Of a stretch of DNA of 64,000 nt, positions 1 to 64,000 are shown piece after piece. Origin of the DNA: Psammoneis japonica. Taxonomy: Eukaryota. The stretch is taken from positions 741,138 to 805,137 of the forward strand of contig QPGO01000006.1 of the NCBI GenBank assembly GCA_008632985.1. Reading direction: 5' to 3'. The position numbers and the translations under genes were made by a program. The notes beneath the pieces are model-generated. The model made no database searches. It was not told where the DNA came from and worked only from the letters and a program-made list of their open reading frames with translations. The number at the start of each line of letters is the position of its first letter. The stretch's first letter is position 1.

Positions 1-227
1 CTCAAACTGGGGGAGGAGCTGTTGGTTCCGTCAGCACTTTGGGTGGCGGAAGTTCGTCACTGTCTTGAGGTTCAGGTGGCTGAATTGGTGTAGAGTCCAC
101 AGAGTCTGCAGGAGTTTGAGTTGCAGGTGGGGCTGGTGGCGTTGGCTGCTGAGTCGCAGGTGCGACTCGATCGGCAACGTCGTCGCGAGAAGTGGGTGAA
201 TCCGGCACAGCAATCGATGGAGCAGGC

Positions 228-2137
228 TCAAAATGGCCGCAAACACAATGTTGCTCTGGCCAGTTCTCGCTCTTTACGTTGACGCTCTGGAGGGGCAAGC
301 CACTCATCGTGTGAATGAACTGCTTGATCCTTCTCCAGAGGGATGCATGTCGATTGGTTGAGGCACAAGTGTTCCCAGTGATCAGGTGGATCCGTCTCCC
401 TCTTGATTGATGGCACGGTTGTGAAGAGATCGTCAAAGACCACATGATGCTGAGGAGTGACACTGCCAGTTTGTAGATTGAGGACCAAAGGAACCTCACT
501 GGAATGGATGGCACTGAGTCCCACGAACAAAGCGCGATGAGTGCGAGGTTCCCAACGCGGGAGTTTCGTTCTGGAAGCAAGGGTCGGATCAAGTGCGTGT
601 GCTGGACATCCCCATGTGTGAATGTCTCGCAGTCGATGTCTTGGCACTGTCGAGCTGGTGAAAATGTCCGCTGGGCAATGTCCCTTGGAATTTGGGGTGA
701 CATTGTAGATGTGCGTGGCACAAGAAACAGCCATGGGCCATGGGGAGCTGTCAACTCCCCCTTTCCAGTGGATTGATGCATGAAGCAACATCGCTCTTGC
801 CGTGTTGGAGATGCTTCGGATGCCCCGCTCTGCGACGCCGTTCTGATGATGGGCGTTGGTTCCACAAAAACAGAGACGTTGTCTGTGGTCTCATGCACGT
901 TGTGCAAAAGCGTTGGCCTTGAAAGCACCACTGTCGGCAAGAAATTCTTGGACGATGACACCGTGGTCCAAAGCATGTTTCTCAAACGCTTGCTTCGCTC
1001 GAATCGTCTCAACAGCGGAGAAACCAAGTTGGTGCTCGACCTGGACACATCCAGAGGCATGGTCGACAAAGATGCAACCGCCCTTGAATTGCTTGGATGT
1101 GGCTTTGCCACAGGAGTCGAAGGTTCGGCCCAAAAGGCGCGACTCAAAATGATCAACGCTGACAGCCTGACCCGGTCGAAGATGGTCAGCTCGAAGGGCC
1201 CCGTTGCGTTCAGGGACTGTCGACTTGTGAGTGGATCCAAGGGAGCGTCTGTGACCTTTAGCACACTCACATGCCTCGCATCTTGGGTGGTCACACTTCG
1301 CTGCGGACTTGAAACGGTTCGAAAGGAACGGAACTGCGCGGAGAAGTGCTTGGACGCGACCAAAGTTCAAATGGCCGAAACGGGCGTGCATTTCGATGAG
1401 AAGCTTCTGGCCTGCCGTGAGGTTTTGATTCTCCTCGTCAAGGATCTGTAGATTCACTTGTGGAGTGGCAGATGCGCCCTTGGTCATCAACGCAACAGGT
1501 GAGTGGCTTGATTGATGATGTGGCATGACCAACTTGCCTGTCCCGTCAACATGTAAACGGAAAGTGGTTTCATCGCCCTCACACTTCCCACGCACCCCCT
1601 TCTCTTCGTTGAAGAGGCATTGAGGCGACAGCAGGCGTTGACGGGCTCCAGGGACTGGTGTGCCATGGTGTTCAGTTGGATGGCAGCGCCACTCGGCGTT
1701 GTGAACACCCACGCAACCGGACCGGTGCCCTGGATGGTTAGACCGTTGGCAATCCCATTGATCTGCAAGGGTTTCTTGGGAACAGTCATGGGCCCCGTAA
1801 AATCATCTTTGTCGGGGGCAACAGCCAGCGTGGCACCAGTGTCCATGACGACCGTGAGAGCCTCGTCCAACAGGCCGATGAGTGCCTGCAGATCGGATGC
1901 AAGGAGGTCGGCTTGAGATTGTCCGGTGAGTAGTTGGATGGTGGAGGCATTGTAGACGACGGGTCTAACACTTGCTTCCTCCAACAGTTCCACAGGATCT
2001 TGAAAATGGGCAGTGTCCACGATGTGATTCGGCAGACAGAGCTCGTCAAACCGGAAGAAATCCGGGCTGAAGTCCTCAAGAGCGTCGGAAGAAATGCTTC
2101 TGGTCGTCGAGAGGTTCCAGTTCCTCACAGGTGTCAA
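228..2137 (-). pseudogene. Copia pol fragment (protease + integrase), broken over several frames
   Basis: DTG protease motif, HHCC pre-integrase motif, DDE integrase core and copia SH3-like tail KLPRWEPR...LFVG. Confidence 0.88.
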
Positions 2138-3249
2138 AGAAGGCTGATTCGTCTATCGCATCAGACCGTTCAGCCACTTCTGGGCTCTCCCAGCAGGCCT
2201 TGAGACGAGTGCTCAGTGCGTGTGATGGATGGCGGGCGACAAACTCGGTGAGCACTCGCGTGCCTTTGATCCTGTGACATTCGAACAGCGACCCCGTGTC
2301 TGACACCATCCGGTCATCTGGCTCTTCCACAATGTGGTAGACTTGAGAGCCAGCGGTCGAAAAACGGCTTGGAACGTTCAAGAATGGACACTCGGGCTGT
2401 TGACCGGCGTAAACTGCTGACCATGCCATCACTGCAACGGATGGGACCATCCAGGAGGCTGGAAACCCGTGCAAGGTTGGGAGTTTGCGCTGGCGGCGTA
2501 GAGCTCGAGGGACACATGGGATCGGAGCAAAGCAAAGATGCAGTGCCGTTTCCCAAAACATGGTGGCAAGCCAGAACATGAATGGCTTGACCCGTCCCAA
2601 GATTGATCGACGCGAAGTGGGCTCGTCTTCGACGTCCTCGTGACAATCATCCGCACCCAGGACCTCTGGATCGTAGAAATCGAAGCCACGACATGCACAC
2701 ACGGAGGTGAGTCGCAGTGTGCGTCTTCAAAGTGTACGTCGTGTTCAAGGATGAGATCTGACTTTGTGTCGTCTGACAGCACATCCGTCAAATGTGCGGG
2801 AGCATCAAAGAACTCATCTGGATGCTTGACAGAGCACAGCTTCGAGGCCGGAAACAACTCAACAGCCGGTGGTTCGTTTTCAAATGTAGAGAAAGCGTTG
2901 GAGCATTCGCAGAAGTCATCGGCGTCTTCGGGAGTGACAGTCTCAACCACGATGGGAGACACGACTGGATCCACGACTGAGGTGAGTGCAGGTGGGCTCG
3001 TTTCGTTGCAAACCACCTCAGCACTGACGACTGCATTGCTCTCCCTCTCGGCCGAAGAAGCCGGAGCAACAATGATTGCAGCAGCAACAGGGGCGGAACA
3101 GAAATCCGGGTCGGTGACGGCATCCGCAGCCGCGCACCACATTCCCGTGAAAACCAACTCGTTGGGGTCGGAGTCGTCTCCCTCTGGTTCCATGGCAGTC
3201 TGAGCTGGCGGACCCATGGGCACGCCACCATCCGGATCAGCAACAGAAG

Positions 3250-4628
3250 ACAAATTCCCGGCTGGGGTCTCCTTGGGAGGGCGCTTGTGGTGGTCTTCGG
3301 TGTGTTCCGCGGCAGAGTGCTTCTGGCAAATTCCAGGTTTGTCAGCACCCTTCGCCGTGCACGTGGCACACCATTTCCATTCCTTGCCATTCTTGTCCTT
3401 CTTCGTTTCCCCGTCAAATTTGGTGCGCCAGGCAGTGATGGGTCCCTCTTCTTCTTAAAGGGTCGGCTGCAGGCGGCGGATTGGGAGGAGGATCGTCGCG
3501 CGGCGGTTTGGCGTTGCACTTCGGGCACGTCTTCTTGGCGCACCCCTCGAGACCGCAACCAAAGCAGTGCTTCATCTTCCCAGGGTCATCCGCAGTCGAA
3601 AGATTACTCTCGGGTAGCTTGGCGACCAATGCAGGCCACTCCCCGTCCTTCACGAGTTCGTTGTGTTGCTCCTGAATCCACGCAATGATGCCGACCGGTC
3701 CGAGCGTGTTGCAATCGCCATCGGACACGATGTCAGCAGGATTCTTGAGGCGGCACTTGCGTTCCACAGCCTTGACATCGTCGAGCTTGTTGTAGACTCG
3801 CCGATTGAAGTGTTCAGAGGACGTAGAGGAGATCTTGTGGAGCAGCTTGGAGCTTGTGTTCGCCGGAAGAGCGCAGTTGGTCTGCACAATTTTCACGATG
3901 CGAAGAGCTTCGGTGGCAAAGTCCGTGCAATCCTCGCCGGGACAGTCAACCAAACTGGGGTCTTCTAGCTGCTTCTTGGCCGTCTCAACATCCGTCAGAG
4001 CACCAGCATTGCAAGCATCGAGAGCCATCATGAACAGAACAGATCCAGGGTGGTCTTGGCAGTCTTGGAGATGGTTGAACTTGGTCTCGATTTTCTCGCG
4101 AAAGGCATTGGTGATTCTTGAGTGAACGAGAAGTTGAGAGAGCCCAACATCGTCGAGCTCGATCTCGTCGCACTTGGTGTCATCGGCAGCTGCTTTCCGA
4201 ACCGTGCACTCGTTCACGAGATCGGTCACAGCAAACTCGTGAAGATGATCGAAGATGTGTTGAACCGTGTCGGCGCTGTTCTTGACATGGCAGAACGTCT
4301 GCTGACCGTGGGCTTCCACTAGATCTCGAACAGTCTTGACGAAATGGTCCTTGTCAAGTTCGTTGATGGGACCGTCCGAAATCTCAAGTCGACCGTTGAA
4401 CTTGGAAGTCATTGCGGAAGCTTGTTGATCGCGGAGAGATCGTTCTGTCGAGTCGAGAGCCTTGGGATGACGGCGCTGAGAGGCGAGTCGGCAGGTTCTG
4501 TCGTTGGATTGTTCATGCCTGTCGTTGAGTTTGGAACCACCAATGTAAACCCCGTGGGTTGGGTGAATTCCACCATGCAACGGCTTGGTTGGAGGCGGAG
4601 GAGCGGTCACTGCGGCGTTGGCGGCCAT
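3250..4628 (-). pseudogene. Copia gag with two zinc-knuckle-like motifs
   Basis: ORF 3414-4628 contains HCFGCGLEGCAKKTCP; a shifted frame near 3290-3380 reads KWCATC...KHSAAEH. Confidence 0.8.
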
Positions 4629-4702
4629 TGCGTCGGCAAACGCCTTCGCCAGAACAGCCGGATCGATGGCGCCATGACAGAGAGTGCAGCATGGGAGGTT
4701 CT

Positions 4703-4895
4703 TGTTAGAATGAAGACGAGAGAAGCGAGAGAGACTCAGCCATTTCCCGGGTTTGCTTCAAAATCAAAACCGAAAGCGTCCGTGACGATGACTCGGTCAG
4801 GAGCTCTCGTCAACGCACAATTTGGGCTCATGACCAGTCGAGATACAGTCCCACAGCTGGGCAGGATGGATGAGACCTCGAGGTTGGCAGCAACA
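4703..4895 (-). repeat. Candidate 5' LTR / leader of the copia element
   Basis: Minus strand runs TGTTG...TAACA just upstream of gag. An internal GGTCATGAGCCCA (4823-4835) resembles a copia-type PBS. The second LTR is outside the window, so boundaries are unverified. Confidence 0.4.
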
Positions 4896-5039
4896 TGAAT
4901 GGCACAGAGGCAAACAGACGCTTGTTCAAAGTCGTTGTCTAAAAATCACGACGAATGTCGTTGCTTCTGTTTGAATCGATTTTATGATGAGCCAATTGTT
5001 TCGAAGAGAAAATCTGAGTCTGGGTTGTGGTCGTGAGAT

Positions 5040-6620
5040 GCGACCAGAATGACGTTGAGTCATGACTGCCTTGGGTTGATGATGCCCACTTGCAGCATTT
5101 GTGGAGTTCAACTTGCCATTGGCGTCAGAAACCTCCAGTTCGCCAGCATGCAAAACCGGTTCTCCAGCCAAGATGCTGGCATGGTTGGCAGTGAAAGTGT
5201 TCCTGGCAACACACAGCTTCCTGTTGATGCCCCAAACAAATGTCCAGGGTCCACTGGGGATGGGACCATCTGTGAAGTACAATCGCATGGTGTTTCCGTT
5301 GTCCGAAACGTCGAATTTTACCGCCACCTTTTCTCTGTCGTTGACGTTGAACATGTGAAAACGGAGCCGGTTCATCATGGTGTGCGAGCAATCTTCATGC
5401 TCAAAGTGCTTCCCTTTCCCGCAGTCAAGCCATTGGAAGAAGGGTTCTCCCAAAAATGGTGTTTCAACAAGCAACCAATGTCGGAAGTGCTTCTTCAAAC
5501 ATCTGTTGCGCCTTGTCTTGGGGTCTTCTAGCTCTAAAACACCAGGCAAACCAATTCCTTGCGCGACAGACAAGGCCATGTCACTCTTGTTGCGTGCCTT
5601 TTCTGCACAACGGCTCCCCTTTGATGAAACGATTCCTCGAGCTTCGTCTTGGTGCGCTTCCTGATCCACCAACTCTCTCCCAATTCGTCGTTTGACATTT
5701 TTGCAAGAGACTTGTTCGTTTCCTTAACCTGCAGCATGTTTTGAACATGAACACTGCACTTGTCCTTTGTGTGATCATTTCGCTTTTGTGTGAAGCCAAC
5801 TGAAACTTTCCGCCCTTTTTCGTCTAGAGCAATTGTGCTCAGGATTGGTCCACCTGTCTCAGTGCAATTCAACTCAAGCTTGACTTTCTTTGCAGGTGTG
5901 TGTGACTGTTTGTGCTCCACAGGCCAGGAAAAGAGCCACCGCCTTCACTCAAGAAAATGCGATGCCGTGGCCAACCACTGTTTCAGTGGCAGACGCACTC
6001 GTCTGTCTTGTCATCAGTCGAACACTTGTTGCTTTTTGCATCACGCATCAAAGAAAGCAACACAAGATTGTGGTTCTTTGTCTTGATGTTTTCCTTGATT
6101 GGCCAATTCCCATGGTTTGGGACCCCCACCATCCTTGCATCTTTCGCGCATGCTGCCAAAGTGATCATGACATCATCACGAAGTAGACAGCCTCTGCAGG
6201 AATCCCTCCTTTCATGAGTGGGTGCAAACAAAGATGACTTTTGGTCAGTTCCATTGCTTTCCTTGTTGTTCGGGGTTCGTGAACGGCACACGGTGACAAG
6301 CAAACCGTTCGAACAGGCTTCGCTAAAACCACTCTGCTCTTGGCAACTAGATTTCGTTTTGACATCCGTTTTGCCTTTCTCCTTGAACAGGTTCAGATTC
6401 AACGCAAAATTTCCTTCGCCAAGGACTGCGCATTGCAGCCGATTGATGTGCAACATAGAGAGATGCACAGAATCAGCCTTTTCTTGATGCGTTCACCGCT
6501 GGCAGAGCCAACATCGAGAACTCGAGATGTCGTAGATAATTTTGACATCTGCAATGCTTTTGTCCAGTGGTCTCAACTTTGTTTTTGCTCAGTGCTGGTG
6601 AACAAGGTTGATGTGGTCAA
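5040..6620 (-). pseudogene. Hypermutated, frameshifted copy of the IQM-like gene at 9926-11644
   Basis: Collinear with about 10050-11600 (e.g. EPFFQWLDCGKGKHFEH vs EPFFQWLDYGKGKHFEH; ASGHHQPK vs ASGHYRPK), with frameshifts and systematic TA->TG/CA changes. Confidence 0.93.
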
Positions 6621-7399
6621 ACAAATTGAGGTGGGTTCTCGGAATCATCGATGGGGGCAAGCCCTGTCTGCGGTGCATGTGCCAATGTTGAATGTTGCGA
6701 CTCTGGATGGAAGATCGCAAAGCAGCTTGAAAATTTCAATTTCACTCGGGTTCGGGGACACACGGCACATTGTGAACACAGAAATCTTGTGGATGAATGT
6801 GACATTGCCACAACAGATTTTTCGACAAGACGAATTGAAGCACCTCTCTGGCAATGTGGCGAATTTTGCACTTGCAACTTGGCTTGGTTTGCAGGTCTTC
6901 TGTTTGCTTTTTGTCTCTTGCACCCGGTCAACACAGCAACTGCAGTTGATGGCAATGGGAACGCACTTGCAAGCCACACAGTGAGCTTTGAGAATCAGGA
7001 AGACCAAGCACGTGTGCCAGTTGGCAAGCTGCAAAAAATTCCAGCACAGAAGCCAAAAAGTCAAGTCATGACACTCAAAGAAGTGTTGTCATTCAGGGCT
7101 GGGAAGTTGAGAGGAATCTAACAGCAAAGGCTGGGAAGTCAACAGGAGTGCAAAAAAAAAGGGTGAGAAGACAACAGGAGTCTAAAGGTGCAGCTCACAT
7201 TGGCAGATCGCAGCAAACAAGCCAGCAGGACCAATGCAAAGAAATGGTCTCTGGAGGGCCTTGCTGTCAAAGAAGCTGTTGAGGGTCTGCTGCTGAAAAA
7301 GAGCATGGCAAGGTTGCATTGGGGATCAGTGGGACAGAGTGTGAAGCTGTTGGCAAACTGTGAAACTCTGGCACAAGTCCCAGGGAAAGATGGGGGCAA

Positions 7400-8345
7400 G
7401 GACACAGTTGAGTGTGGCTGGAAGCATGAAAGATTTGAAGGAGTGGGTTCATGATGCCGTTGCCAAATCAGGGCAACAGGCAGATAGATGGTCACACAGA
7501 AACCACAAGAAAGATTGGTGAGCATGTTGGAAGAGTGCTTGAGCCAAAGGTGAAGGTGCGCTGGCATCTCTGAGGCAGGAGAGCATGCCAAAAGAGCCGG
7601 TGCATCCATCGGGAGTCACCATGTTGGAGAAGGACAAGGCAATCTGGGGCAAGAAATGTGGTCACTGTGTGAAACAGAGTGCAATCTGCAAGATGATCCA
7701 TGCAGAAGGTGAAGGCATTCAATGCAATCATGGGAAAATGTGCAAAGGCCACTTGCCACAAACTTGAAGGAGTGATGGACTTTCCAAGAGTCCCAAAGGA
7801 GTTGGACATGGTGGCAGCACTGCTGGATGTTTTCAAGTTGATCTTGTTCAGGACCAATGAGAAGATGAACCTGCATGTCCAGGCCATCAAGGCTTGGAGG
7901 CAGTTGACACTCATGCATCAAGATGAAGGAAAGTTGCTTCAAGATCATTGCAGTCAATTTGTGAGTTGTGAGCATGGTTGAAGCAATGAAAAAGTCCCAT
8001 CTCAGGACCATCCCAGAAGAAATTGCCACGAAAGAAGATGGGTTCAGCAGCAAGGATGCTGATGACACCCAGAACAAAGGAGGAACAAGTCATTGACCAC
8101 GGTGCTGGTGGAGGGCACCAAGGAACACAAGCACCTCTTAAAAGACCTGCATTGGCAGCCTGCACTGGGAGTTGACACACTCACCCCAATTCAGCCAAGA
8201 ATCTGCTGCAGGTGTTGGACACCTGCAGGACCATCAAAAAACCCAGGGCACAAGCTTTGCACAGAACAAGAAGACACAGACCAAATGCTGGAAATGCAAC
8301 AAGGTTGGACATCAGGGGAGAGATTGTCCTGAGACAATGACCATC
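7400..8345 (+). mobile_element. Decayed LTR-retrotransposon gag fragment
   Basis: CCHC knuckle KCWKCNKVGHQGRDCPE at about 8282-8332, upstream gag-like segment AWRQLTLMHQDEGKLLQDH; almost no TA or CG. Confidence 0.7.
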
Positions 8346-9329
8346 TGTCAGCCGAGTTTGATGATGCAGACCATGGGAGTCAGTGGAGCAGTCAATGTGG
8401 TGTTGTGGGCATGGTTTCCAAGTGCCATCCTCCCATGCTTGATGCACATGATGGCTTGTGTGAAGGAGTGGCAGGTTGGAACATTAGAGTTGGCAGAGGC
8501 AGTTTTTGCTTGACAGACAATGTTGCCATGTGAGACACACTGACAACTGTGGACAATGCGGTGATTTTGCATTTGCAACTCAGATTGAATTGTGGGCCTT
8601 GTGTTCACTTTTAGCTTCTGCACCCGGCTGACATGGTGACAGTGGTTGACAGCATTGGGGTTTTGTTTGCAAGCTGCACGGTGAGCCCAGGGTCAGTGAG
8701 ACTGAACGCGTGCTGCTGGCTGCTGGCAAGCTGTGAAATTCCAACAGCTGTGGTGCCTGCACAAAATGGCCAGCAACATTGGCTGCTCTCACTCCTTGTG
8801 CACCACCCCAGCATTTGGCTGCTGCAAGCCTGAGAGCCAGCCAGCTGGCAATTTCTTGCAGCCTGTGGGTGGTCGAGAGTGAGCGAGTTGTTCAAAGCAT
8901 GCTGAGCACCAGCTTCTCTCTCACAATTGGCTGCAACAAGCTTGGCCTCAGCTTCTTGGTGAGTGACATGTGTGGAGCCCCCCACAGCTCATCCCATGCC
9001 ATGACCTGCACACCCAGCTGAAAGGCAGTGTGCCAGCACTTGACAATTTCCCCTGCAACACCAGCTTTGGCTGCTGCCAATGCTGGAGCACAGCTGCCAG
9101 CATGTTCCCCATTGTTGCTGGTGGATCTTTTGCACCAGATGGCGGATGAACAAGAGCGCCAGCATGGTGCTCAAGGTAGACTCCAGCAGCACCCGGACAG
9201 CCACTGGGATTCTTTCTTGAAACAGCCTCTTCTTGTCTTGTTTCTCTCTCCTGATGCTTTGAGGCACTTTGCCGTGTGCACCTGCCTCAAATTGGAGTGA
9301 CAAAGTTGATCCTCCACACATGTTTCCCA

Positions 9330-9520
9330 AACACAGTGGGTGGCAGCCCACACACAGTGGCAGAACAAGCTTTTTGAAAACAGGGTTTGGGAAAAAGTTC
9401 TCTTGGCACACAAAGTGGCTTTTGTTCATGTGTCTGGACTGCTTGACCTCATCTTCTTGAACAGGGTGAGATTCAGTGCAGCAACTTCACCAAGGACTGC
9501 ACATTGAAGCCTGATCATTG
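9330..9520 (-). pseudogene. Third, more diverged fragment of the IQM-like gene N-terminal region
   Basis: RLQCAVLGEVAALNLTLFKK matches RLQCAVLGEGNFALNLNLFKEK at about 6375-6445; shared DNA ttgaacagg...caaggactgc. Confidence 0.7.
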
Positions 9521-9925
9521 ACACACCAATCCATGATCCCGGGGCCACAAAACAAGAGAAACAAACAAACATGGGGGAGGTCAAGTTGGCAAATTGAGCC
9601 AGTGATCCTGTCCAGGGCTCTTGTGGACAATGTTCAATCAAGTTGATAACGTGCGTCAGACATCTCAAACAAAGAACACAAAGTTTCATTGCATTGCATC
9701 CTTGTGATCATCCCAAAGCGTCCCTCCACTTGACCCAAATGATGCAGTCATAACAGTGGCAGCCCAATCAAGTTTACCTGGTGTTCTTTTCAGCACAAAG
9801 CCATTTTCTGGAAGGCATGTTTGGAACAGAGATGAAAATAAAATGAGCATGTGTGCAAGATGTGTGAATGTTTTGCGGGGATGCTTTGAGCCATATTATA
9901 ATTGTCGGTGCTAAAGTTTGGATTC

Positions 9926-11644
9926 TTATGTAAAAATTGTCTGCCAAATTTCTTCTGGAAATATTGTGCAGTCATGGTCCCAAAAAATGGCTTGTCTCGT
10001 TATGCCATAATTATCGACGAGAAACTTATAGAACGACTTGACGTGTTCCATCTTGGGTCGATAATGCCCGCTTGCAGCATTCGTGGAATTCAACTTACCA
10101 TTGGCATCAGACACCTGCAGTTCCCCAGCATGCAAAACCGGTTCTCCAGCCAAGATACTGGCATGGTTGACAGTGGAGATATCTCTGGCAATGTACAGCT
10201 TCCTATTGATACCCCAAACAAATATCCAGGGTCCACTGGGGACGGGGCCGTCTGTGAAGTACAATCGAACCGTATTTCCGTTGTCCGAAACGTTGAATTT
10301 CACCATTGCCTTTTCCCTATCGACGGTATTGAAGACCTTAAAATGATGGCTGTTCAACATGGAATGCGAGCACTCCGTATGTTCAAAGTGCTTCCCTTTC
10401 CCGTAGTCAAGCCATTGGAAGAAGGGTTCTCCCGAAAATGGTGTCTCGTCAAGTAACCAATGTCGGAAGTACAGCTTCAAACATTTCGGAAGCCTTGCGA
10501 TCTTGGGGTCTTCTAGCTCTAAAACACCGGGCACACCGAGTCCTTGCTCGACAGACAAGGCGATGTCGCTCTTGTTGCGTGCACTTTCCACGTACCAGTT
10601 CCTCCTTTGACGAAACTCTTCTTCGAGCTTCTTCTTGGTGCGCTTCCTGATCCACCAATCCTCTCCCAATTCATCGCTTGACATTTTTGCAAGAGAATCG
10701 TTCTCTTGCTCATTATGCAGCATGTTTCGAATCAAAACACTGAAATTATCGTGTGTGTAATCGTGTAGCTCTTGTGTAAAGCTAACGGGAACGTTGCGCC
10801 CTTTTTCGTCAAGGGCAATCGCTCTCAGTACCGGCCTACCAGTCTCGGTGCAATTCAATATAAGCTTGACCTTCCTTAGAGATGGCTGCGACGTGCTTGT
10901 ATTCAGCATCCTGGGAAACGAGCCACCGCCGCCATCGCTCAAGAAAATGCGATGCCGTGGCCAACCACTGTTTCGATGGTAGACGTATTCGTGTATCTTG
11001 TCATCAGCCGAGTCGTTGCTGCTTTCTTTGTCACGTGTCAAAGACAGCAATACAAGATTGACGTTCTTGCTCTTGAATCTTTCCTTGACTATCCACTCTC
11101 CATGGTTTGGGACCCGCACTGCCGTTGCACCTGTTGCACATTCTGTCGAAGTGATCACTACATCGTCGCGAAGTAGAAAACCTTGACATGAGCCACTATT
11201 GCTCCCAAGAGTGGGCTCAAGACGAGATGATATCTTGTCAATATGATGACTTGGTGAACGATATACGTTGACAAGTAAACCTTTCGAACAGCCTTGGTTA
11301 ATAGATTTCGTCTTGTTTTCGATTGGAGCTTTCCTCGTGTACTGGACCAGATTATGCTTTCGGCCAGAACCATAGAGGCGTATTTGACTTTCTGTGATGC
11401 AAGATAAAATGGCATCATCAAGGATTGTGTACTGCAGCCCCATCATTGTGAAACACAGGGAGAAACACAGTATCAGCCTTCGCTTGGTGTGTTCATGGCT
11501 AGCAGAGCCGCAAACGAGAACCCGAGGTGTTTTTGACATTTGTGCAAGTGGTTTCGACTCAGTTCTGTTACTTCCCAGAACTGTGCATTCACGAGGACCA
11601 GTCTTGTTTGTTTCTTGTGTAACGGTGTTGAAGAAAGGTTCCAA
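9926..11644 (-). CDS. Protein with a C-terminal IQM-family-like domain and a degenerate trypsin-like N-terminal motif
   Basis: 572-aa ORF. EDPK...PFFQWLDYGKGK...WIFV...LYIA...HASILAG...AGEL...ASGHYRP resembles the conserved plant IQM C-terminal domain. True start uncertain. Confidence 0.8.
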   Translation of the reverse strand: MEPFFNTVTQETNKTGPRECTVLGSNRTESKPLAQMSKTPRVLVCGSASHEHTKRRLILCFSLCFTMMGLQYTILDDAILSCITESQIRLYGSGRKHNLVQYTRKAPIENKTKSINQGCSKGLLVNVYRSPSHHIDKISSRLEPTLGSNSGSCQGFLLRDDVVITSTECATGATAVRVPNHGEWIVKERFKSKNVNLVLLSLTRDKESSNDSADDKIHEYVYHRNSGWPRHRIFLSDGGGGSFPRMLNTSTSQPSLRKVKLILNCTETGRPVLRAIALDEKGRNVPVSFTQELHDYTHDNFSVLIRNMLHNEQENDSLAKMSSDELGEDWWIRKRTKKKLEEEFRQRRNWYVESARNKSDIALSVEQGLGVPGVLELEDPKIARLPKCLKLYFRHWLLDETPFSGEPFFQWLDYGKGKHFEHTECSHSMLNSHHFKVFNTVDREKAMVKFNVSDNGNTVRLYFTDGPVPSGPWIFVWGINRKLYIARDISTVNHASILAGEPVLHAGELQVSDANGKLNSTNAASGHYRPKMEHVKSFYKFLVDNYGITRQAIFWDHDCTIFPEEIWQTIFT

Positions 11645-37833: not shown

Positions 37834-38295
37834 AGCAAGTCCGCTTGATTTCGTAGTGTATACCGGGGTAAATGGCTGGATTGCCATTGGGGGGATTTAA
37901 TAGGTGTTTAGCGGCTTTCAAGCATTGTACAGCCGCAAGCGAGATGTGCTTTCTAACCAGCAGTATGCAAGAGAACGTTCGAGAGTCGCTGCTGCTGGAT
38001 ATATGATTGCCTAATCTACCGTTGTTGAAGGTGTGAAACCGTTTCGGCATGGAGATTCTACTCGTCTAAGAAGAATCTTCTAGATCTGCACACAAGTTAA
38101 GCTAGAGCAGAAAATCTAGAAAGAGGTGATGTGATTGTTTTGCCGGCATGTAAGACTTAGTGAGAGCCTGTACCAGAATGCTCACAAGCAGGCCTGAGCT
38201 CGCGTCGTCTATGGCAGCGTGGTTTGCTGCATCAGAACTCCAACCATTGTATGAAGACTGACCAAAAAATTTGTGAATTATTTTCTCATTATCCC

Positions 38296-40978: not shown

Positions 40979-41054
40979 AAAGACGAGTCACGAACACCAC
41001 ATTGTTCAACACGACGACAGACCAAAAAACTGGTGCAATTTTGCTGTTATCCCT

Positions 41055-46132: not shown

Positions 46133-46619
46133 AATTTTTCAAATTTTGCAGTCCACGAACGTCCCTACTGCGTTTTAGTACCAATTCCGACGTAGAATTT
46201 TGGAAAGCATGCGTGACAAATTTTGAAAAAAAAAAACGCGTGTGTGTGACGAGTGACGATTGGAGATTATCGGATATATGAATTGTAAGTCTTGTGCTGC
46301 AAAAAGTATGAAAGTAGTATCGTAGCGAGTGTTTTGTTGTGACAATTTCAGTGGTGGCGGAGTGGTTGCAATTACACACGCACCGTGGGCGGCGGAAAAA
46401 GAGGCGGCGGCGTCGTCGGTCCACCTGCCTCTGCTGGTTGTGCGCCGTTGATTTGATTTTGGTGGGCTTGCAGCAGCACGTGTCTGGGCGGCGTCCGTTT
46501 CGAAAGTGCGGCGCCCGCGCGTACCGTACTGTACTGTAGGTAAGGTTCATCTTGTTGTATTTCTACATACTGTACGAAAGAACCACCATGATTCTACGGC
46601 GGCAGCTTGAGATCATTGC

Positions 46620-48690
46620 TCTTCCCTCACATTTCACAAACTTGCAAACAAGAACATCAACAACAACCATCATGGCATCTTTGTTTGACACATCAATGGG
46701 ACCCGGCTTTCCACATTCATTTCAATGGCAGTGCTGGAGTCAGCATCATCCCAGCAGACAGGGGCACAGCTTTGTCTCCTCCTTTTCCAGAGCATGGAGA
46801 AGACACACATTTGGAGCAGCTTGTGCTGGAAAACAATGGCACAAAAGACAGTGCAGTTCAGGCATTTTCCAAGTAAAAACTCACATGGGGAGAACCCACC
46901 AGGCATTTGCACACTGAGGCAGCGCTGCTCTCTCAGTGGCAGGCCTCCTCTGTGCTGCCCTGCCTGCTGTGGGTGACAATGACAGCACTGGTGCAGCCAA
47001 ACTGGCCCCGCTGGGGTGCACGTGTTCTTCTGCCAGGCCACTTGTGGCAGATGATGGTGGCAGCAATGACAATGACAGCCCAGATTGGATCTCCCTGTCC
47101 CCAAAGTGGGGGCACAGTTGTCTTGCTGACAGCATGCTGTGCTGCCCGCCTTTGCTTGTCAGAAGGAAGGGGGGGGGCGTGCAAAGCAAAGAGAAAATGA
47201 GCTCTTCTTCTGGCAACTCATCTCTCTGTTCTGTTCAATTGACAAGTGCTGGGGTGTCAAAAATGACCCATGGATTTTGTCCCACCATGCCAACATCAAG
47301 AGCATCTCAAATTTTTGCACTGTGTGGAACTTGGGCATGTCCAACTCTTGCACGGCACAAAGTCCCACTTGGCTTGCATGCCCACACACCACACTTTGAT
47401 GGCACTGTGGCGCAAGAGGATGTGCCATGCTGAGCAATGGCATGATTTTCTGCCAGCTGCAGGTTGGTTGCTCTGATTGCAGCTGAGCAACTGCTGCGCG
47501 CCAATCAACCACACCCTGATGGCTCCAGATCAAGTGCACAGCAGAGCTGTGCAACAACAACCTTGCTGGCCCAAAGCATGGCTGGGGCAATGAGGAGGGG
47601 TGCACAAGCACAGCATGTGCTGGCACAAGGTCTTCCACAATGTTGACACCATTGCCAAGCATGCCAGCTGCAATCAATGTGGTGCCACGGCAATGCCAGG
47701 CCATGGCGGCATTGGCAAAGCCAGCTGGTGATTGGCAGCACCCACTGTGCTTGCCCATGCACTTACATTCACTGCCACAAAGCAGGTTTCCAAATGGACA
47801 GCAATGGGGTGGGGTGACTTGGTGTGTGGGTGACATCAGAGCAGGTTGATGGCATGGTTGAGAGCAGCTCAATCAACTGATGCTGGGAAACAGGCAAAGC
47901 AAGTTTTTAAGGCAAGCCGCCACAAAGCACCTGGGACAAGAATTTTTCATTGGCTGGGTGGGTGAGCAGGAGGCACCTGGAGTGGCACACAATGTTTGTT
48001 GCAAGGAGATGGCAGAGGAAAACCTGCTTCACAGAGGTTGGAAGGTCAGCAGCTGAGTGGGCCATTCTTGCACATGTTTTGGGACAAGAAGCTTTCAAAG
48101 CCAATGCTGTGGTGTTGTCAATGGCAAGAGCTTGGGACATGTCCTGGTGACAGTGCAATGAGAACAGCAAGCAACATTGATGGGGTGGCGAAAGACTGCA
48201 GCTGCTGTTGCAAGACTGGCTCTCACACAAATGATGACAAGAAAGAAGATGTGCACACAATTCAGAGCAGTGAAATGCCATGGTGGCATGTCTTCCATCT
48301 CCCACCAATGCTGGAAATGCCAAGGCTGTGGTCTCACCTTCTTCTTGGTTTGCTCATTGGAGGCTTTTGTGGCTGCATCGCTGGAGGTTGAGCAGCATGG
48401 CATGTCTTTTCATTGTCGTCAATCTCTGCCTGAGTCTGCTGAAATGGGATGGAGCCATGCACAGGGGTGATCATGACTGCAGTTGCCATGGCAGAAGTCG
48501 GGACAGCTTTTTGAGCAAAAATGTGGTGAAGATGGAGAGGTTTGTCGGTGCCACTTACCTGTCCCACTGCACCTTCACTTGCGAGTGTGCCTCGCACACG
48601 TGCACTGCACCAGGCACTGTTTGCACGGTCGATGAATCAATCGTGCACGTGCAGTCTGTGGCACACATAGTTCGCCCACAAGCAGAGATA
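46620..48690. mobile_element. Heavily decayed transposon relic, class uncertain
   Basis: Almost no TA or CG over about 2 kb, no coherent ORF, sharp return to normal composition on both sides. Confidence 0.6.
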
Positions 48691-52365: not shown

Positions 52366-52719
52366 GGCGTCCTTGTCCTCAACGAAGATATGAAATGCGC
52401 CCTGCGCATCGCGACGCTGTCAACATTATTTTAGGATACAATGGCTATCCAGCAGTTCCTCACATCCAGCCACGCTTACATAATAAGTAGGATTTGTACA
52501 GTAGAATTCGTTGAAACATACTGTACGACGTCAGCAAGAACATGTGTCTGGCATGCATCCCACACATCTGTTACACTTGGCAGTAGATCGAGATATGAGG
52601 CGTCATAGTCGTACAAACGTCGTATAGTCGTAGTGGGTAGAACCGACTTCAACTACGAGATACATCATCGCACATTGAACTTCCACAAGATGTCGTTCCC
52701 GCTGACGTTCATAACCTCA

Positions 52720-55678
52720 CCGGTGTGATGCCGCTGCTGTTAGCAGTGCATCCCAATGTGGAATGCACGAGCGAACGATGACGTGTCAAGTGAATCGAGA
52801 CGAGCGATCTGCAACGTGTCGGGTCCGTCAATCATGCACGGAAGTTTGCTTCAACCCCAATTTTTCATGAGATCTGAACTTTTGCAAAGGAAGACTCTCC
52901 AGCCATCTCGACACAAAGCATCGCCAGTTGCAGCTGAGACAACATCTGCGGGGACCAGAATGCACTGGTCGCAGAGTCTGCAGAGACCGGGAAACACCGG
53001 CTGCAGATTTGTCATGTCGCATTCATTGTCATTCATTGCACTCTTGACACACTGAAGATTTGTTGCACACACTCGTCTGCTGACTCCAGAAAACACTGGA
53101 AGTGGACCCTGCAGTGACTGGGAACACCAGTTGCAGGTCGGATTGTCTGCCATCTGTTGATCACATTGACTTTGCTCAGATTGTTCTCATTGCAAGTCTC
53201 ATGGGTCGTCGTGTCATCTGGTGTGCACCTGTTGCTGCGTTGTTGGTTCAACTTATCTTTGCGCAGTGTGAGCCTGCCGTTGCAAGCTGTCTTGTGGATG
53301 ACAGCAACACCAGGCACCGAGACAACACAAACAGATGTTTTGAGAAGCTTTGTTGCAGGAATGGAAACGAGTGCGTCCCTTGGGTTTGTTTGGTGTGTGA
53401 CAGATTGTCAAAACTGTCTCAGACTGCTCGACTTTCTGTCAACAAATTGAAAGAAGCCAGACACCTGTTGACTCCATCTGAATGGAACCAAGTGTCGGAA
53501 GACCCACACGATTGTCATCGCATCGATGACGACCACATTCCACGGGATTGCCGATGGATTTCCGACCTGTCACTTTCGCCAAGAGCTCGACACATTGTTC
53601 CGAACGACAACAGAAGGTCTGAAGGATTCACTTGTTGCAGGCCTTGTAAAAGGAGTCTCTGCACTGCTTCTATGCCTCCACACGCAACAGCAAATAATTG
53701 CTGTTTTGGAACACCACCACCTGAATTATCGTGTCTTGCCAAAGTGGAGCTGGCTTTGTTGACACCTGTGAAAACACATGGCTGCTGCTTCAGTTTTGTC
53801 GGTGGCAAACAGAAGAAACTGCAAGGCAGTCTTTCCTGTTGCAAGACAAACACAAAGAGCATCGCCCGCACCATTGTGCACTTTGACGTGTTGAACCTTC
53901 ATCAAAATGTGGTTGTGTTGGCATCCGGCAAAATGACACCAGAGCAAAGGCGAATGGCCAGACAAAAGAACAAAATCAGGACTCACCATGTGATGAGAGC
54001 ACCAGAATGGCTTGTCCATCACCACGAGAATTGGATGAATCAAGACATCGATCTAGAGGAAGTGCGGAGTAATTTGCAGAGTCCAGTTTCAGTGGACAAT
54101 GGCAGCCCAGACGAAAGCGAAAATGCAAACATTGAAACCACGGAGTCCTGCAGTGTTCATTTCCCCGATGGCGCCGTTTCTTCAACAACTGGTGGACAAC
54201 GTAATTTAGACAGCTTCAAAGACTTGGTGCACGATGCAGCTGCAAGCGGTTTTGACATTGAATTCAAAGCTGATCTTTTGAAAGAATCAGTCAGTGACTT
54301 TAAGGATGACAACCTGGCAAATGCTTGCTTGCTGCAATTTCCTTGTGGGTGTGGCGGTGTTGATGAAACAAGAATGAAAGAAGACGGGAGTCTCACCGAC
54401 TGTGCAAATCTAGCACATTGCGCAGATCACTTGGCCCGCATTTCTCAGCCCCATTTCCACAAGCAACTCTTTGTTCTGACCCTGTGCAATCTGACTGTGA
54501 AGCAACGAATGGTGCACAGTGCTGGATGGAAAGTAAGAGACAAAAATCAAGCCAGACAATTCTCAAATGAACTGACACAAGACGACGTCGACTGTGCCAT
54601 GTGTGACAGACAGACCGGTGAACGCAGGAATTATGCATTGGGACATCGTTTCTTAAGTGCAGTGGATGTGGTGTCGGCATCTGTTCCACGTGCAAATGAA
54701 GCAGCAAAAAAAATGAGAAGAAATGCTGAAACCTGCCAACACCACTTTGGACAACCTGGAGCATTTTTAACGACAAGCCCCGATGATGCCAACTCCTTTT
54801 TAGTTCAAATTTATGCGGACATGCTCATCGACAAAGGCAGAGATGTGACAGAAATGTCGGATGAAGAATCAACCGAAAAGGCTAAGGCAAGAAACGAGCT
54901 TCGTGTGGAGCACCCGGGTGTCACGGCTTTTGCACTCGAAATGTCATTGGAAATCGTCACAGAAGAAGCAACAGGATGGGACTTAAAAAGGAATTCACCC
55001 AGAGAAGATTTTGAATTCCACATGGGGAGACCCTCCGCTTTCACAGCTGCAATGGAAGAACAAGGTAGACTCTCGGCACACGGTCACATTCAGGCATGGT
55101 TTGAAGACATGAACACAGCAAGAGACAATCTGCACTCTGACAACAGAGATTTTAGGCGTGATGGTAAAAGAACACTGTCCAAACTGACCAGTCAGATCTG
55201 CACAACTGGGTTGACATGTTTAAAGGACCCAACCCAACAGATGACAGCTGAGGAAAAAGAGAAACACATGCTCGGACTGAAAGCAACCCAATTGGCATTC
55301 ACAATGAACAACGCGACTGCAGGACACAAGCTTCAAGGAAGCGGTGTCGACAATGTGTTTGCACACAGCTGGAGCCACACACAAAACTGGGCACATGTCA
55401 TGCTCTCCAGGGTTAAGACCAGAAATGGTCTGCATCTTCGGCAACCGCTGAAGAGAGACTTAAGTCTGCACAGACTGCCGGACGGGTGTAACACCCTGCT
55501 CCGGTTGATGGAAGGAAAAAGTGTCACATGCTTCACCAACGAACAGCATGATGACATTTTGCAGTCCAATTGACACACAGAACATTTTGACACTGCATGT
55601 GGGAATTGTTTCTACATTTTGGAAAATGTTCCAAGCTTTGTGCGCGGGCTTGCAGGCGTGCCCGGCAACAACCGATAG
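52720..55678 (+). mobile_element. Internally deleted Helitron (Rep-helicase), TA-hypermutated
   Basis: ORF 53102-55573: LLQFPCGCGG, HHFGQPGAFLTTSP, HUH motif EEQGRLSAHGHIQAW fused to a Pif1 C-terminus TAGHKLQG...AHVMLSRVKT; 3' hairpin CGGGC/GCCCG (55645-55664) then GATAG ending at 55678. Confidence 0.88.
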
Positions 55679-55999
55679 AAAACAAAGGGTCTAATCTAAC
55701 AAATCGATGTTAGCACATTATTGCAATGACAGACACACTCAGCAACCAGTGACACACAACGTTAGGACAGTTCTCTTATCATCTGCCATAGAGCGATCAC
55801 ACCAGAATTATCAAAAAGGGGAAACCCACGTCTCTTCTTATAATGTGTCCATACACAAATGCAAGAATTAAATCGCCATTTTTTGATATAATGTTAAAAC
55901 ACAAATGTAGAATTACGTCGCACATTAATTAATTGCGAACCCATCATTTAAGCGTGCGAATTTTTTAAAAAATGATTGGTGGCAAGTAAAGATCAAAGC

Positions 56000-57700
56000 T
56001 CTAAAATTTGATGCTCGCGCGCATGGCAATCCAAACCAGCCCGGGTTCCACACCTCCTCACTTCGTGTCCAGAGTTCCTGCCATGAAGGAGGAACCAATT
56101 TTTCGGGGAGTTGCTTGTGGGTTGTGTTGTCCGTTCCCTGCAGAAGAAAGGAGAAAGGCGCACTCTGTGCCGTGTTGAAGATTTGGCGCTCTTGTGCTTG
56201 TTCCCAGTGGCGGCTGACAACCTGAGACCGTTCCGTGAGTGTTGCTGACTCTCACAGGATCATCCGAAATGTTTGTGGATCGCCATTTCCCTTGAACACT
56301 GGGGTCACTGATGATGCCAAAGAAGCGTCGTGAAAGACTGCTGGGTGACATTTGAAAGAAATGACAACTGCTCCAGAGCAAACTCTTTGGACAACTCCCA
56401 AGTGAGTTCAGCTGTGAGGTTGTGGAGCGTCATCAAAATCATGTGATGCACACTCAACATCAACCAGATGGAAGGGGGGGGGCAGCAAGTTTTGGTGCAG
56501 CAGCACACCACCTCTCAAGAAATCCGGCAGTGCCTTTGGGTGCACTCATCCCAGGGTGCGGAGCTGGTGGCAGCTTTGCAGCACTCATTGAGGTCTTGCA
56601 GCAAAAAGACTTTGGAGCATGAACTCATCTTGAGAGGTCTCATCCAACAGGGAGTCAACAACAGAGGCACCAAAATTAAAATGTCTGCACTGTGCAGTGT
56701 CACAATCAACCCCATCTTCAAGAAGCCCAGCTTGCTGAAGAAGAAGAACAGCCGCTCTGCGATTGTTCCATGACCAAGACAGATCAAGACATGCACTGTC
56801 ATCCTTTTTGTCCAAAGGCAACAACCAATCTCAGTCAAGAGGAGCTTTGGTGCAGTTCCTCAGGACTTGCTCATTGCTGCTGGCTCTCAAGCCTGCATTG
56901 TGAGATGAGTTGTTCTGTCAAGGTGACACTTGTCACCACCGCGGTCGTGGCTTGCCAGAACAGGGTGGGTTGGCATGGCATTTTCAATGGTGGCATGCTC
57001 TCCTTGTGTTGATGGAATGATGCACAGAGGAGGCACATCTTCTGGCCCAGCACTCAAGCAGTCTGGGGCAAGAGGAGGAGGAGCATCACAACAAGCTGGA
57101 GATTGGGCCATGCCTGCTGGCAATTGCACCTGGCTGCAGTGGTTGAAGTTGTGGGATTCTCACATCAACGCCATTCATGGGCATGACAAACCAGGAAATT
57201 CATGAAAGAATGTTGAGATGTGGAGGCTGAGGCCAGTGCATTTGCTCCTCCTACAAGGATGGCCACCAGTGCCCACACCTGCCTGAGGACATTTTGCATG
57301 ATTTGTTGGACTTGGTGGATGAGCACCTTCAACATTCAATGCACAGGTTTTGAAACTGGATTGTGATGGCAATGTCCAAGTCAAGCATTGGGGATGCTCA
57401 TTGTTTGGCATTGAGGGCCACATGAACGATTGCCAGTCACTTCGGCTCCCACACACTCCTGCCTCACATTGGTGCATGACTGGGGGTGTGGGTTGGCTTG
57501 TTGCTGGAGTTGCTGGGTAGAAGCATGGTGGCACCTTTGAAAACAGAGTTTGTTTGGTTTGGGTTGAGTTACCTTGTCATCTCGACAATTGAGAAATGAG
57601 ACGGTGAAATTGATGTGAGGGCCGCCATTGTAATTTCAAGTTGTGTGTTCTGCACAAGAAGGCAGGGTGTCACACGCATGGCAGGGGAATGGAGCAGAGA
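56000..57700. mobile_element. Decayed transposon relic, class unknown
   Basis: TA- and CG-depleted block with no recognisable intact domain. Confidence 0.55.
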
Positions 57701-63239: not shown

Positions 63240-64000
63240 CCCCCCACACTAAGGAGAATCAAAAGCCTGGTAAAAACAGGATTGAAGATCTGCTAGTGCA
63301 AAAGAGAAGTGGTGAGAGTCATGACTGCCAGACAGACAGACAGCAAAACAGAGACAATGCATCGTCCGTTTCTGCGCCCGACACCATGTCCCACTCATTA
63401 AACCAATCCATTGAATCGCCAACAATTGACAGACCAGGAGATTGCTCGGAGCATGAGCAGGACAGCAAACTGGGAGGTCTGCTGGGATGATGCCAGAGTG
63501 CACTGTCAGGAGGGCCGTCCAGACCTGGTCTCCAATCCAAGAGGAAATCAGGTGGGCGACCGGAGCAGCGCCAATTTGGCAGCAGTGAGTCACCAGGGAT
63601 TGGCCAAGGCAACAACTGACAACAACTCCAAGCAGTGCAACCCCCCCACAATGGGAGGCTTGCAACATTGGCAGGGTTGGGGCAAGGAGAATCCGAGACA
63701 ATTGACTTCCCAGAAAAGACAATGGACCCATTTGCCTCGTTCGCGGTGCACAGAGAAGCTGTCTGCATGCAGCACACAGATGGAAGCTTGTGCCACACAA
63801 TGTGTTGATGAGCATCAAGGGAGTGTGTTTTGATTGAACCAATCGCCTTGTTCACAACACACACCATTGCTGCTCGGTAACAGCAACACCAGCTTTCTTG
63901 TGCTCAACCAGCTTGCCAAGTTTGCCCAAAGCAATCTTAAAAATAGCCAGTGGGTCAGTCTTGACATTCTCAGAAAAAGAACAAGGGTCAACTGGTGGAG
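63240..64000 (-). mobile_element. Decayed retroelement-like relic, continues beyond the window
   Basis: TA-depleted; FALADLQSCFYQ resembles an RT motif. Confidence 0.45.

Follow-up and report, generated by a model that had tools for sequence, protein, structure and literature searches.

Transposon-derived blocks of the diatom Psammoneis japonica, a dead Helitron among them, carry a TpA mutation mark consistent with strand-symmetric DNA adenine deamination at 5'-TAY

The window and its TA-depleted blocks

In the 64,000 nucleotides of Psammoneis japonica DNA analyzed here (contig QPGO01000006.1, positions 741,138 to 805,137; this whole stretch is referred to as the window), TA dinucleotides are nearly missing from five blocks that hold a truncated Helitron, a copia-type retrotransposon and a number of relics, and TG and CA are in excess in the same blocks. 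The window has a GC content of approx. 49% and an overall observed/expected ratio (o/e) for TA of 0.43, with a bimodal distribution; most 1-kb bins show TA o/e values of ~0.37-0.71, and some show values of 0.03-0.2 together with TG and CA values of up to 1.5-2.0. TA positions plotted along the window gave sharp block edges. The five blocks (numbered in Table 1; 16,894 bp in total) were taken as the depleted set, and the remaining 47,106 bp of the window as normal DNA, which was the reference for all density ratios.

Table 1. Features of the window bearing on the loss of TA (ORF, open reading frame; LTR, long terminal repeat; R, purine; Y, pyrimidine; TG, CA and CG values are o/e)
Position	Strand	Feature	Remarks
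1..9750		Block 1, largest TA-depleted block: copia element, relics without an assigned identity, captured gene fragment	51 TA; TA o/e 0.09; CG 0.66, depleted from ~7000
1..4757	-	copia-type LTR retrotransposon (gag, protease, part of integrase), heavily mutated	Cut by window start
5070..6193	+	Mutated partial copy of the adjacent gene, inside block 1	80% identical to 10052-11183
10052..11183	+	Unmutated paralogue, ancestral-state reference	Part of ORF 9926-11644 (minus strand); TA o/e ~0.6
46600..48660		Block 2, relic depleted of TA and CG, flanked by two normal genes	4 TA; TA o/e 0.03; CG 0.19; TG 1.85; CA 2.03
52431..56097	+	Inserted multi-copy unit carrying the Helitron ORF	3667 bp; missing from one contig of the organism's own reads
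52438..52741		Left end of inserted unit, multi-copy, TA and CG normal	~22 TA, 8 RTAY; depth 1150 in bin 52256-52672
52745..55610		Block 3, TA-depleted tract of the Helitron copy	26 TA in 2866 bp; TA o/e 0.13; CG 0.62; TG 1.73; CA 1.53
53102..55573	+	Truncated, mutated Helitron Rep fragment, 823-codon frame	DUF6570 and Helitron_like_N, no helicase part
55613..56002		Right part of inserted unit, lightly affected	Depth 1515
56005..57515		Block 4, older relic depleted of TA and CG	Mostly single-copy depth; 2 TA; TA o/e 0.02; CG 0.28
63295..64000		Block 5, TA-depleted	Continues past window end; 4 TA; TA o/e 0.10; CG 0.34

The ORF of the Helitron copy is a dead, truncated, multi-copy Rep fragment and not a working gene. 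It matches the Pfam families DUF6570 (PF20209; E = 5e-14) and Helitron_like_N (PF14214; E = 2.2e-7), the latter being the Rep domain expected of a Helitron, and has nine homologues with 36-48% identity and E values down to 1e-184; the fusion of Rep to a helicase that characterizes Helitrons was not found, as there was no match to a PIF1-type helicase in the 823 residues. Tyrosine (Tyr) makes up 0.24% of the ORF residues, cysteine (Cys) 4.6% and histidine (His) 4.7%, as compared to 3.0-4.6%, 2.1-3.4% and 2.3-3.8%, respectively, in the homologues P0003-P0010. A preliminary description of this DNA had counted about 26 TA in the ORF, none of them RTAY and roughly half of them YTAR. These counts hold: the 2472 bp contain exactly 26 TA (TTAA 7, GTAA 6, TTAT 4, TTAG 3, CTAG 2, and CTAT, ATAA, CTAA and GTAG 1 each), representing 13 YTAR, 8 RTAR, 5 YTAY and 0 RTAY. 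Among the 1730 TA of normal window DNA, by comparison, 524 (30.3%) are RTAY and 285 (16.5%) are YTAR, which gives probabilities of 8.4e-5 for 0/26 RTAY and 8.0e-5 for at least 13/26 YTAR.

The unit that carries this ORF was delimited with contigs from a DNA sequencing run of the same organism (X1), in which contig depth is ~60 in single-copy flanks. One X1 contig joins position 52430 to 56098, skipping 3667 bp, in place of which it has 8 other letters; another allele or locus thus lacks the 3.67-kb Helitron unit, an insertion polymorphism. The summed depth of X1 contigs is 1018-2527 in the bins from 52673 to 55591, and the unit is multi-copy since this is far above the depth of the flanks. Within the unit, the depleted tract starts abruptly at ~52745 (~340 bp before the frame), shows its strongest depletion at 52840-53640, the first kilobase (200-bp profile), and thins to 55610 (~40 bp past the stop codon). 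At 55640-56039 there are 24 TA with only 2 RTAY, and light zones in which RTAY was lost first also border block 4.

For the copia element, 131 homologues were found at E <= 0.001, with 31-66% identity among the matches listed, which include Fragilaria crotonensis proteins; its Pfam matches (gag_pre-integrs and SH3_retrovirus) were both weak. A Pfam scan of 16 frames in 1-9500 of block 1 returned two weak copia matches only, and no identity was obtained for the relics of blocks 2, 4 and 5. Depth over the relic of block 4 is 49-61 at 56426-57259, 528 in the bin that overlaps the inserted Helitron unit and 997 in bin 57260-57676. This summed contig depth of ~1000 at the right edge of the block belongs to a separate repeat family.

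CG is depleted as well (o/e 0.1-0.3) at 7000-9750, 46750-48500 and 56250-57500, only within TA-depleted blocks, and the stretch 1-7000 combines strong TA loss with nearly normal CG. Because 1-7000 has lost its TA and yet keeps most of its CG, the two losses are separable processes. These data suggest that two processes of different speed or age act in the same domains, the second and slower of which would be CpG decay through deamination of 5-methylcytosine (5mC).

The blocks are separated by genes of ordinary eukaryotic kinds (WD40, bZIP, FG-GAP, methyltransferase, EDR2_C and DUF6824); for the DUF6824 protein, the closest Atlas clusters are eukaryotic and mostly from Bacillariophyta. Short tandem duplications occur at 43036-43253 (two 110-bp units, 97% identity) and at 17041-17212 (two 88-bp units, 81% identity).

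Direction and sequence context of the change

Ancestral states were inferred from protein homologues, using columns in which at least 60% of the unmutated relatives agree. Three elements were used, i.e., the window Helitron, the window copia element and L009, a 7-kb metagenome Helitron contig from another project with 9 TA (o/e 0.02), 0 RTAY and a CG o/e of ~0.3, whose RepHel frame of 1651 codons is still open (DUF6570, Helitron_like_N and PIF1, the last at 1376-1547). Among 71 conserved Tyr columns in these elements, 35 now read Cys (TGY) and 16 His (CAY), with 3 Tyr and 17 other residues. Conserved Cys and His were retained in 45/56 and 48/62 columns of the same elements, respectively. Replacement of Tyr was observed in the window Helitron ORF (15 of 16 columns replaced, 7 by Cys and 4 by His, with 1 Tyr left), in L009 (30 columns; 18 Cys, 4 His, 1 Tyr) and in the copia element (25 columns; 10 Cys, 8 His, 1 Tyr).

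The closest database homologue of the window Helitron ORF, P0002, has 866 amino acids and 0 Tyr, and its 11 conserved Tyr columns hold 6 Cys and 4 His; P0002 looks like the open frame of a marked element that was called as a gene. By these residues and dinucleotides, L009 and P0002 carry the same mark as the window Helitron. By contrast, 13 of 14 related metagenome Helitron loci are TA-normal, with TA o/e values of 0.32-0.90 and RTAY representing 22-35% of TA. The TA poverty was therefore acquired and is not a family trait, and the Helitron family is not intrinsically poor in RTAY. No further marked copia element was found among the homologues P0011-P0130, all of which have normal Tyr contents (1.7-4.9%).

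The paralogue pair of block 1 was also used to determine the direction of change. The 39 TA of the normal copy (10052-11183) correspond in the block copy (5070-6193) to 17 TG, 11 CA, 4 retained TA and 7 others, i.e., 28 transitions to TG/CA vs. 7 other changes at TA sites. In the opposite direction, the 7 TA of the block copy face CA of the normal copy in only 2 cases, and TG in none. A control pair of tandem FG-GAP genes in normal DNA (38253-40093 and 41013-42862, 80% identical) is symmetric, with TG/CA opposite 12/63 and 17/64 TA. The block copy also shows 25 changes from CG to TG/CA as compared to 8 in reverse, which is ordinary decay of methylated CpG.

Per adenine, A>G changes in the paralogue pair were observed at 32/78 TA, 11/177 AA, 15/168 CA and 12/157 GA. 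In a separate test at the first position of conserved isoleucine (Ile), methionine, threonine, asparagine and lysine codons, A had changed to G in 16/20 codons when preceded by T and in 6/143 otherwise (P = 6e-14); the changed fractions after T were 11/12 for TAT, 3/3 for TAC and 2/5 for TAA. Strand-symmetrised densities in the blocks relative to normal DNA were 0.016 for RTAY (6 vs. 1048), 0.145 for RTAR/YTAY and 0.352 for YTAR (72 vs. 570), and counts in blocks vs. normal DNA for individual tetranucleotides were 0/258 for ATAT, 1/255 for ATAC, 4/280 for GTAC, 14/134 for CTAG and 28/146 for TTAA. For the 15 other central dinucleotides, flank classes range from 0.57 to 1.58 and those with R..Y and Y..R flanks differ by no more than ~1.25-fold. 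As these control dinucleotides stay within this range, the loss of TA is not uniform and composition does not explain it. The preliminary description, which had claimed a context-dependent loss and had named uniform loss under controlled composition as the outcome that would contradict it, is borne out in this respect (RTAY 0.02 vs. YTAR 0.35). Its statement that YTAR is spared was wrong, since YTAR loss is only slowed and ~65% of these sites are gone.

With four parameters, an additive half-site model reproduces all 10 tetranucleotide classes; the fitted loss per adenine is 2.26 with T at +1, 1.28 with C, 0.63 with G and 0.33 with A, and TAT is lost at least as strongly as TAC. Survivor counts alone cannot separate a pyrimidine at +1 from a purine at -2, but the outcomes of the changes can, as in YTAY only the adenine of the coding strand has a 3' pyrimidine, while in RTAY both adenines qualify. 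Conserved Tyr codons that follow a pyrimidine (YTAY) had changed to Cys in 27 cases and to His in 4 (P = 3.4e-5), as compared to 8 Cys and 12 His for those that follow a purine (RTAY). Because YTAY gives Cys far above His, the change falls on the A with a 3' pyrimidine, which upholds the proposal that the target is the A of 5'-TAY.

In the paralogue pair, this rule accounts for 13 of 17 TG and 9 of 11 CA outcomes. That TG outcomes in the pair are mostly at TAY was thus correctly described earlier; that all CA outcomes are at GTA was not, as 7/11 are at GTA and 9/11 at RTA. CTAG and CTAA do survive in the pair, beside one GTAC and one GTAG.

Sites with a T at -3 are protected from the change. 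TCTAC has a relative density of 0.49 (15 vs. 86) and TTTAC one of 0.38, as compared to 0.03-0.05 for CTAC preceded by A, C or G (3 vs. 198; P = 1e-5). This protection explains the surviving GTAGA and GTAAA (TCTAC and TTTAC on the other strand), which, as previously noted, predominate in the copia element (15/28 surviving TA; 18/51 in all of block 1), and it also explains the persistence of in-frame Tyr after ATC, GTC and GTT codons. Among the four residues that had been said to precede surviving Tyr (Ile, valine, phenylalanine and leucine), Ile and valine are supported by at least 6 in-frame TAC codons of the copia element after ATC, GTC or GTT, in frames each backed by 8-51 homologue alignments. 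On the product side, the density relative to normal DNA is 1.43 for YTGY vs. 1.17 for RTGR, in agreement with the +1 rule, although CpG decay confounds this comparison and it carries little weight.

Overall, these data give a rule that applies to each adenine: T is needed at -1, the base at +1 determines the rate in the order T > C > G > A (~7:4:2:1), and T at -3 is protective. RTAY vanishes because it offers two good targets, and YTAR lingers because it offers two poor ones. From the rules for -1, +1 and -3, the motif would read 5'-(not T)-N-T-A-Y, changing to T-G-Y on either strand.

The change has a marked effect on reading frames. TAA and TAG together occur 120 times in the 16.9 kb of blocks vs. 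1492 times in the 47.1 kb of normal DNA (both strands). A change of TA to TG or CA creates no stop codon, and TAA>TGA swaps one stop codon for another. As TAA and TAG are destroyed, frames stay open while Tyr turns into Cys or His, and overlapping spurious ORFs arise on both strands of block 1; since stop loss opens frames, an open frame of 823 codons does not show that the gene is alive. Spurious long frames on both strands were observed in blocks 1, 2 and 4 and at 2047-6999 of L009.

Action on DNA and competing explanations

The mark is strand-symmetric, with RTGY vs. RCAY on the coding strand at 55:70, 111:113 and 84:92, and it is found alike on the Helitron, a DNA transposon, on the copia retrotransposon, on the captured piece of a host gene and on single-copy relics. 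At 53516-53518, a conserved Tyr codon reads CAT in the window and TGT in another genomic copy, and the two copies thus record independent changes of one ancestral TA, each on a different strand. Over the whole matched stretch, differences between the window and X1 comprise 47 A>G, 55 T>C, 45 C>T, 40 G>A and 35 transversions. Taken together, the symmetry, the range of elements and the evidence from X1 copies speak for a process that acts on DNA in place, and against RNA editing or a base-calling artefact. An X1 contig matches 46508-50799 with 10 differences, 9 of them inside block 2. Variation is thus concentrated in this block, and at one of the differences a surviving TA (47764) reads CA. Window matches in a sediment metagenome (X2) and in X3 were short or consisted of few pieces, and none were found in X4.

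These observations demonstrate a signature with a direction, a context rule, sharp-edged confinement and an occurrence in other records. We interpret it as strand-symmetric deamination of DNA adenine at 5'-TAY, confined to transposons and with the dead Helitron among the marked elements, and we estimate the probability of this interpretation, which draws on sequence comparison, at roughly 60%. The mutation process, confined to transposon blocks, turns A:T into G:C at TpA on both strands about equally; an enzyme would flip out the adenine and deaminate it hydrolytically to hypoxanthine, which is read as G, and it would probably be guided to transposon chromatin or to transcription units. An enzyme is the simplest account, because the A>G change depends on a motif of at least 5 bases, acts per strand and is confined to mobile DNA.

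Several points weigh against this interpretation. The deamination chemistry is deduced from the mutation spectrum, and the data are equally compatible with the complementary view that the T of 5'-RTA is the modified base. The copy-to-copy spectrum rests on the 40 of 224 differences that were seen individually, CA/TG differences between copies can also stem from an ancestral CG, and the X1 run may have been the source of the window assembly, in which case the two are not independent. The unmutated gene copy lies only ~300 bp from the block, and normal DNA and relatives stand in for the composition that the blocks had originally. Finally, the left end of the inserted unit (52438-52741) is multi-copy and yet fully TA-normal, and 55613-56002 is barely affected. 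Since this multi-copy end stays TA-normal, it is false that every repeat is hit. One may hypothesize from the abrupt start and the 5'-to-3' gradient of the Helitron tract that a transcription unit or chromatin domain is targeted, and not any repeat; alternatively, the TA-normal ends of the unit were unmutated sequences captured later.

Sequence alone cannot tell the A of TAY from the paired T of RTA as the altered base, and among the alternatives to adenine deamination the one that survives best, although we consider it improbable, is an alteration of the thymine of 5'-RTA, e.g., TET/JBP-type oxidation in silent chromatin. Thymine oxidised to 5-hydroxymethyluracil or 5-formyluracil mispairs with G, giving T>C, and as A>G at TAY and T>C at RTA are one change read from opposite strands, all counts fit equally well. 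TA loss and CG loss share blocks, and the T in TpA and the 5mC in CpG are both 5-methylpyrimidines before a purine, for which a single enzyme is imaginable. Nothing in the sequence, however, favours an altered thymine over adenine deamination, and the TA loss with near-normal CG at 1-7000 separates the two processes that a single enzyme would join.

We regard as more doubtful still that T-A-Y adenines are first N6-methylated by a methyltransferase that marks transposons and that deamination or mispairing of the methylated base then yields G. In favour of this, several protists and algae methylate their DNA at ApT, which is part of the best context, T-A-T, and the rule operates per half-site and strand, as for a base-flipping enzyme. 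An ApT methylase, however, leaves the absolute T at -1 without an explanation: A>G was observed at only 4/32 A-T sites preceded by A, C or G, as compared to 11/12 for T-A-T. We also know of no highly mutagenic route for N6-methyladenine.

ADAR- or ADAT-like editing of transposon transcripts, followed by reverse transcription back into DNA, is very unlikely. Replication of copia through RNA would allow for this route, and clusters of A-to-G changes with a 5' U preference recall A-to-I editing. The same mark is nonetheless present on the Helitron, the host gene fragment and the single-copy relics, the two strands are equally affected within one element (8 Cys and 12 His at RTAY; RTGY similar to RCAY) and one site shows different outcomes in different genomic copies. 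RNA editing is largely refuted by this evidence from the DNA transposon, the relics and the strands.

We assign hardly any probability to error-prone repair synthesis of the DNA polymerase eta (Pol eta) type at WA motifs (W, A or T) in silent chromatin. This explanation can draw on the hypermutation of immunoglobulin genes, where TA is hit more often than any other WA motif and A>G is the most frequent type of change. The preliminary description had proposed that a raised AA>AG rate would point to Pol eta and its absence to a deaminase-like process; AA was not raised (11/177 vs. 32/78 at TA), and the 28 transitions vs. 7 other changes at TA also argue against Pol eta, for which, to our knowledge, no dependence on the -3 base has been described.

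Equally remote is the explanation that no mutation process took place and that the pattern reflects selection, foreign origin or the miscalling of modified bases. Most genomes are short of TA, and even the normal DNA of the window has TA o/e values of ~0.37-0.71; nanopore base callers are moreover known to misread modified bases. Against this stand the conserved Tyr codons that read Cys or His, the directional paralogue pair and the 13 of 14 relatives that are TA-normal, as well as the X1 contigs (k-mer depth ~60) that repeat block 2 and the like mark on L009 from another project. This explanation is refuted unless X1, the assembly and L009 all consist of uncorrected nanopore reads. Ultraviolet thymine-adenine photoproducts with poorer repair in silent chromatin were dropped in view of the sharp edges beside untranscribed TA-normal spacers, and such photoproducts are not known to us to give A>G.

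Implications and comparison with known systems

Adenine deamination at 5'-TAY might tentatively be extended to a diatom "RIP in reverse" (after the repeat-induced point mutation, RIP, of fungi), i.e., a natural enzyme deaminating adenine in DNA, with a tRNA- or toxin-type deaminase as its possible ancestor, that is guided to the chromatin or transcription units of transposons and kills them by Tyr>Cys/His missense changes while frames stay open; we hold this fuller scenario to be possible but not the favoured outcome. There is nevertheless a substantial chance that a new enzyme activity lies behind the mark. No deaminase was found among the ORFs of the window (27 ORFs scanned against Pfam plus 15 ORFs). 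Transposon-directed hypermutation is itself known, and for its TpA-directed A>G form we found no earlier description, in diatoms or elsewhere, in a search of full-text literature (subscription-only papers lay outside it). If true, the scenario would reveal the first natural deaminase of DNA adenine known from eukaryotes, and also the first adenine-based genome defence; adenine base editors reportedly came out of laboratory evolution, for want of a natural enzyme with such an activity. Hypermutation from A to G at a 5-nt motif in a major marine algal group would represent a new chemistry of genome defence, the form known from fungi being a change from C to T.

The mark has consequences for annotation. 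RIP indices miss a change from TA to TG/CA. Marked elements become GC-richer and keep long frames (823 codons in the window ORF, 1651 in L009, and P0002), which gene finders will call as "hypothetical proteins", and the loss of Tyr with the excess of Cys and His weakens domain searches. Conversely, the mark could serve for dating and classifying transposons in diatoms and for finding out in which lineages the process occurs.

Among known systems, CpG decay in methylated transposons resembles the second layer seen here (CG o/e 0.19-0.34 in three blocks). It differs from the TA mark in that it removes CG only, while 1-7000 shows TA loss without CG loss. Hoguin et al. 2023 (PMC9998398) report DNMT4 enzymes of unknown function in many diatoms, akin to RID, the enzyme of RIP. 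This diatom DNMT4 bears on the CpG layer at most.

The AID/APOBEC enzymes share with the mark a short-motif specificity and the use of mutation as a defence, and the abrupt start of the Helitron tract and its thinning with distance are similar to AID tracts downstream of promoters. Unlike AID/APOBEC, which target C, the process described here targets A, and outside CpG no C>T excess was seen that would need AID/APOBEC.

ADAR enzymes, which are known only in animals, tolerate A and C at -1 and favour G at +1. ADAR hyper-editing is similar to the mark in its clustered A-to-G changes and in that the 5' neighbour matters; in the window, however, no base but T is effective at -1, G at +1 is unfavourable, and a DNA transposon and single-copy relics are affected, so that neither an RNA route nor a restriction to one strand per molecule nor the preference for G at +1 was found. 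In fungal A-to-I editing of mRNA the preferred +1 base is a purine, the unfavourable context in the window.

TadA acts natively on U-A-C-G, and natural TadA and ADAT2-ADAT3 act on RNA loops; laboratory-evolved TadA variants deaminate deoxyadenosine in DNA. As with TadA/ADAT, A becomes a base read as G and a pyrimidine (U/T) at -1 is strictly required (16/20 vs. 6/143 at first codon positions; 32/78 at TA vs. 6-9% at AA, CA and GA), and U-A-C-G matches T-A-C. Unlike in TadA/ADAT, the record is in DNA and on both strands, and the +1 position, where a pyrimidine is favoured, accepts T no less readily than C, with a fitted loss of 2.26 for T vs. 1.28 for C and counts of 0/258 for ATAT and 4/280 for GTAC. 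By analogy, a TadA-like deaminase, as proposed in the preliminary description, would be a candidate agent.

RIP of ascomycete fungi is a RID/DIM-2-dependent C:G>T:A change, mainly CpA>TpA. As in RIP, dense transitions in the window lie in sharp-edged transposon and repeat blocks, affect one dinucleotide target on both strands, hit copies differently and permanently inactivate mobile DNA. RIP mutates all copies of a duplicate; here, 5070-6193 is mutated and 10052-11183 is not, the multi-copy end at 52438-52741 is unmutated, and blocks at single-copy depth are mutated. The host is a diatom and not a fungus. While RIP creates TpA and AT-rich DNA, so that TpA rises, the process described here is an A:T>G:C change at TpA that removes TpA (o/e 0.02-0.13, with TG/CA at 1.5-2.0) and raises GC, and it makes no stop codons and erases TAA and TAG.

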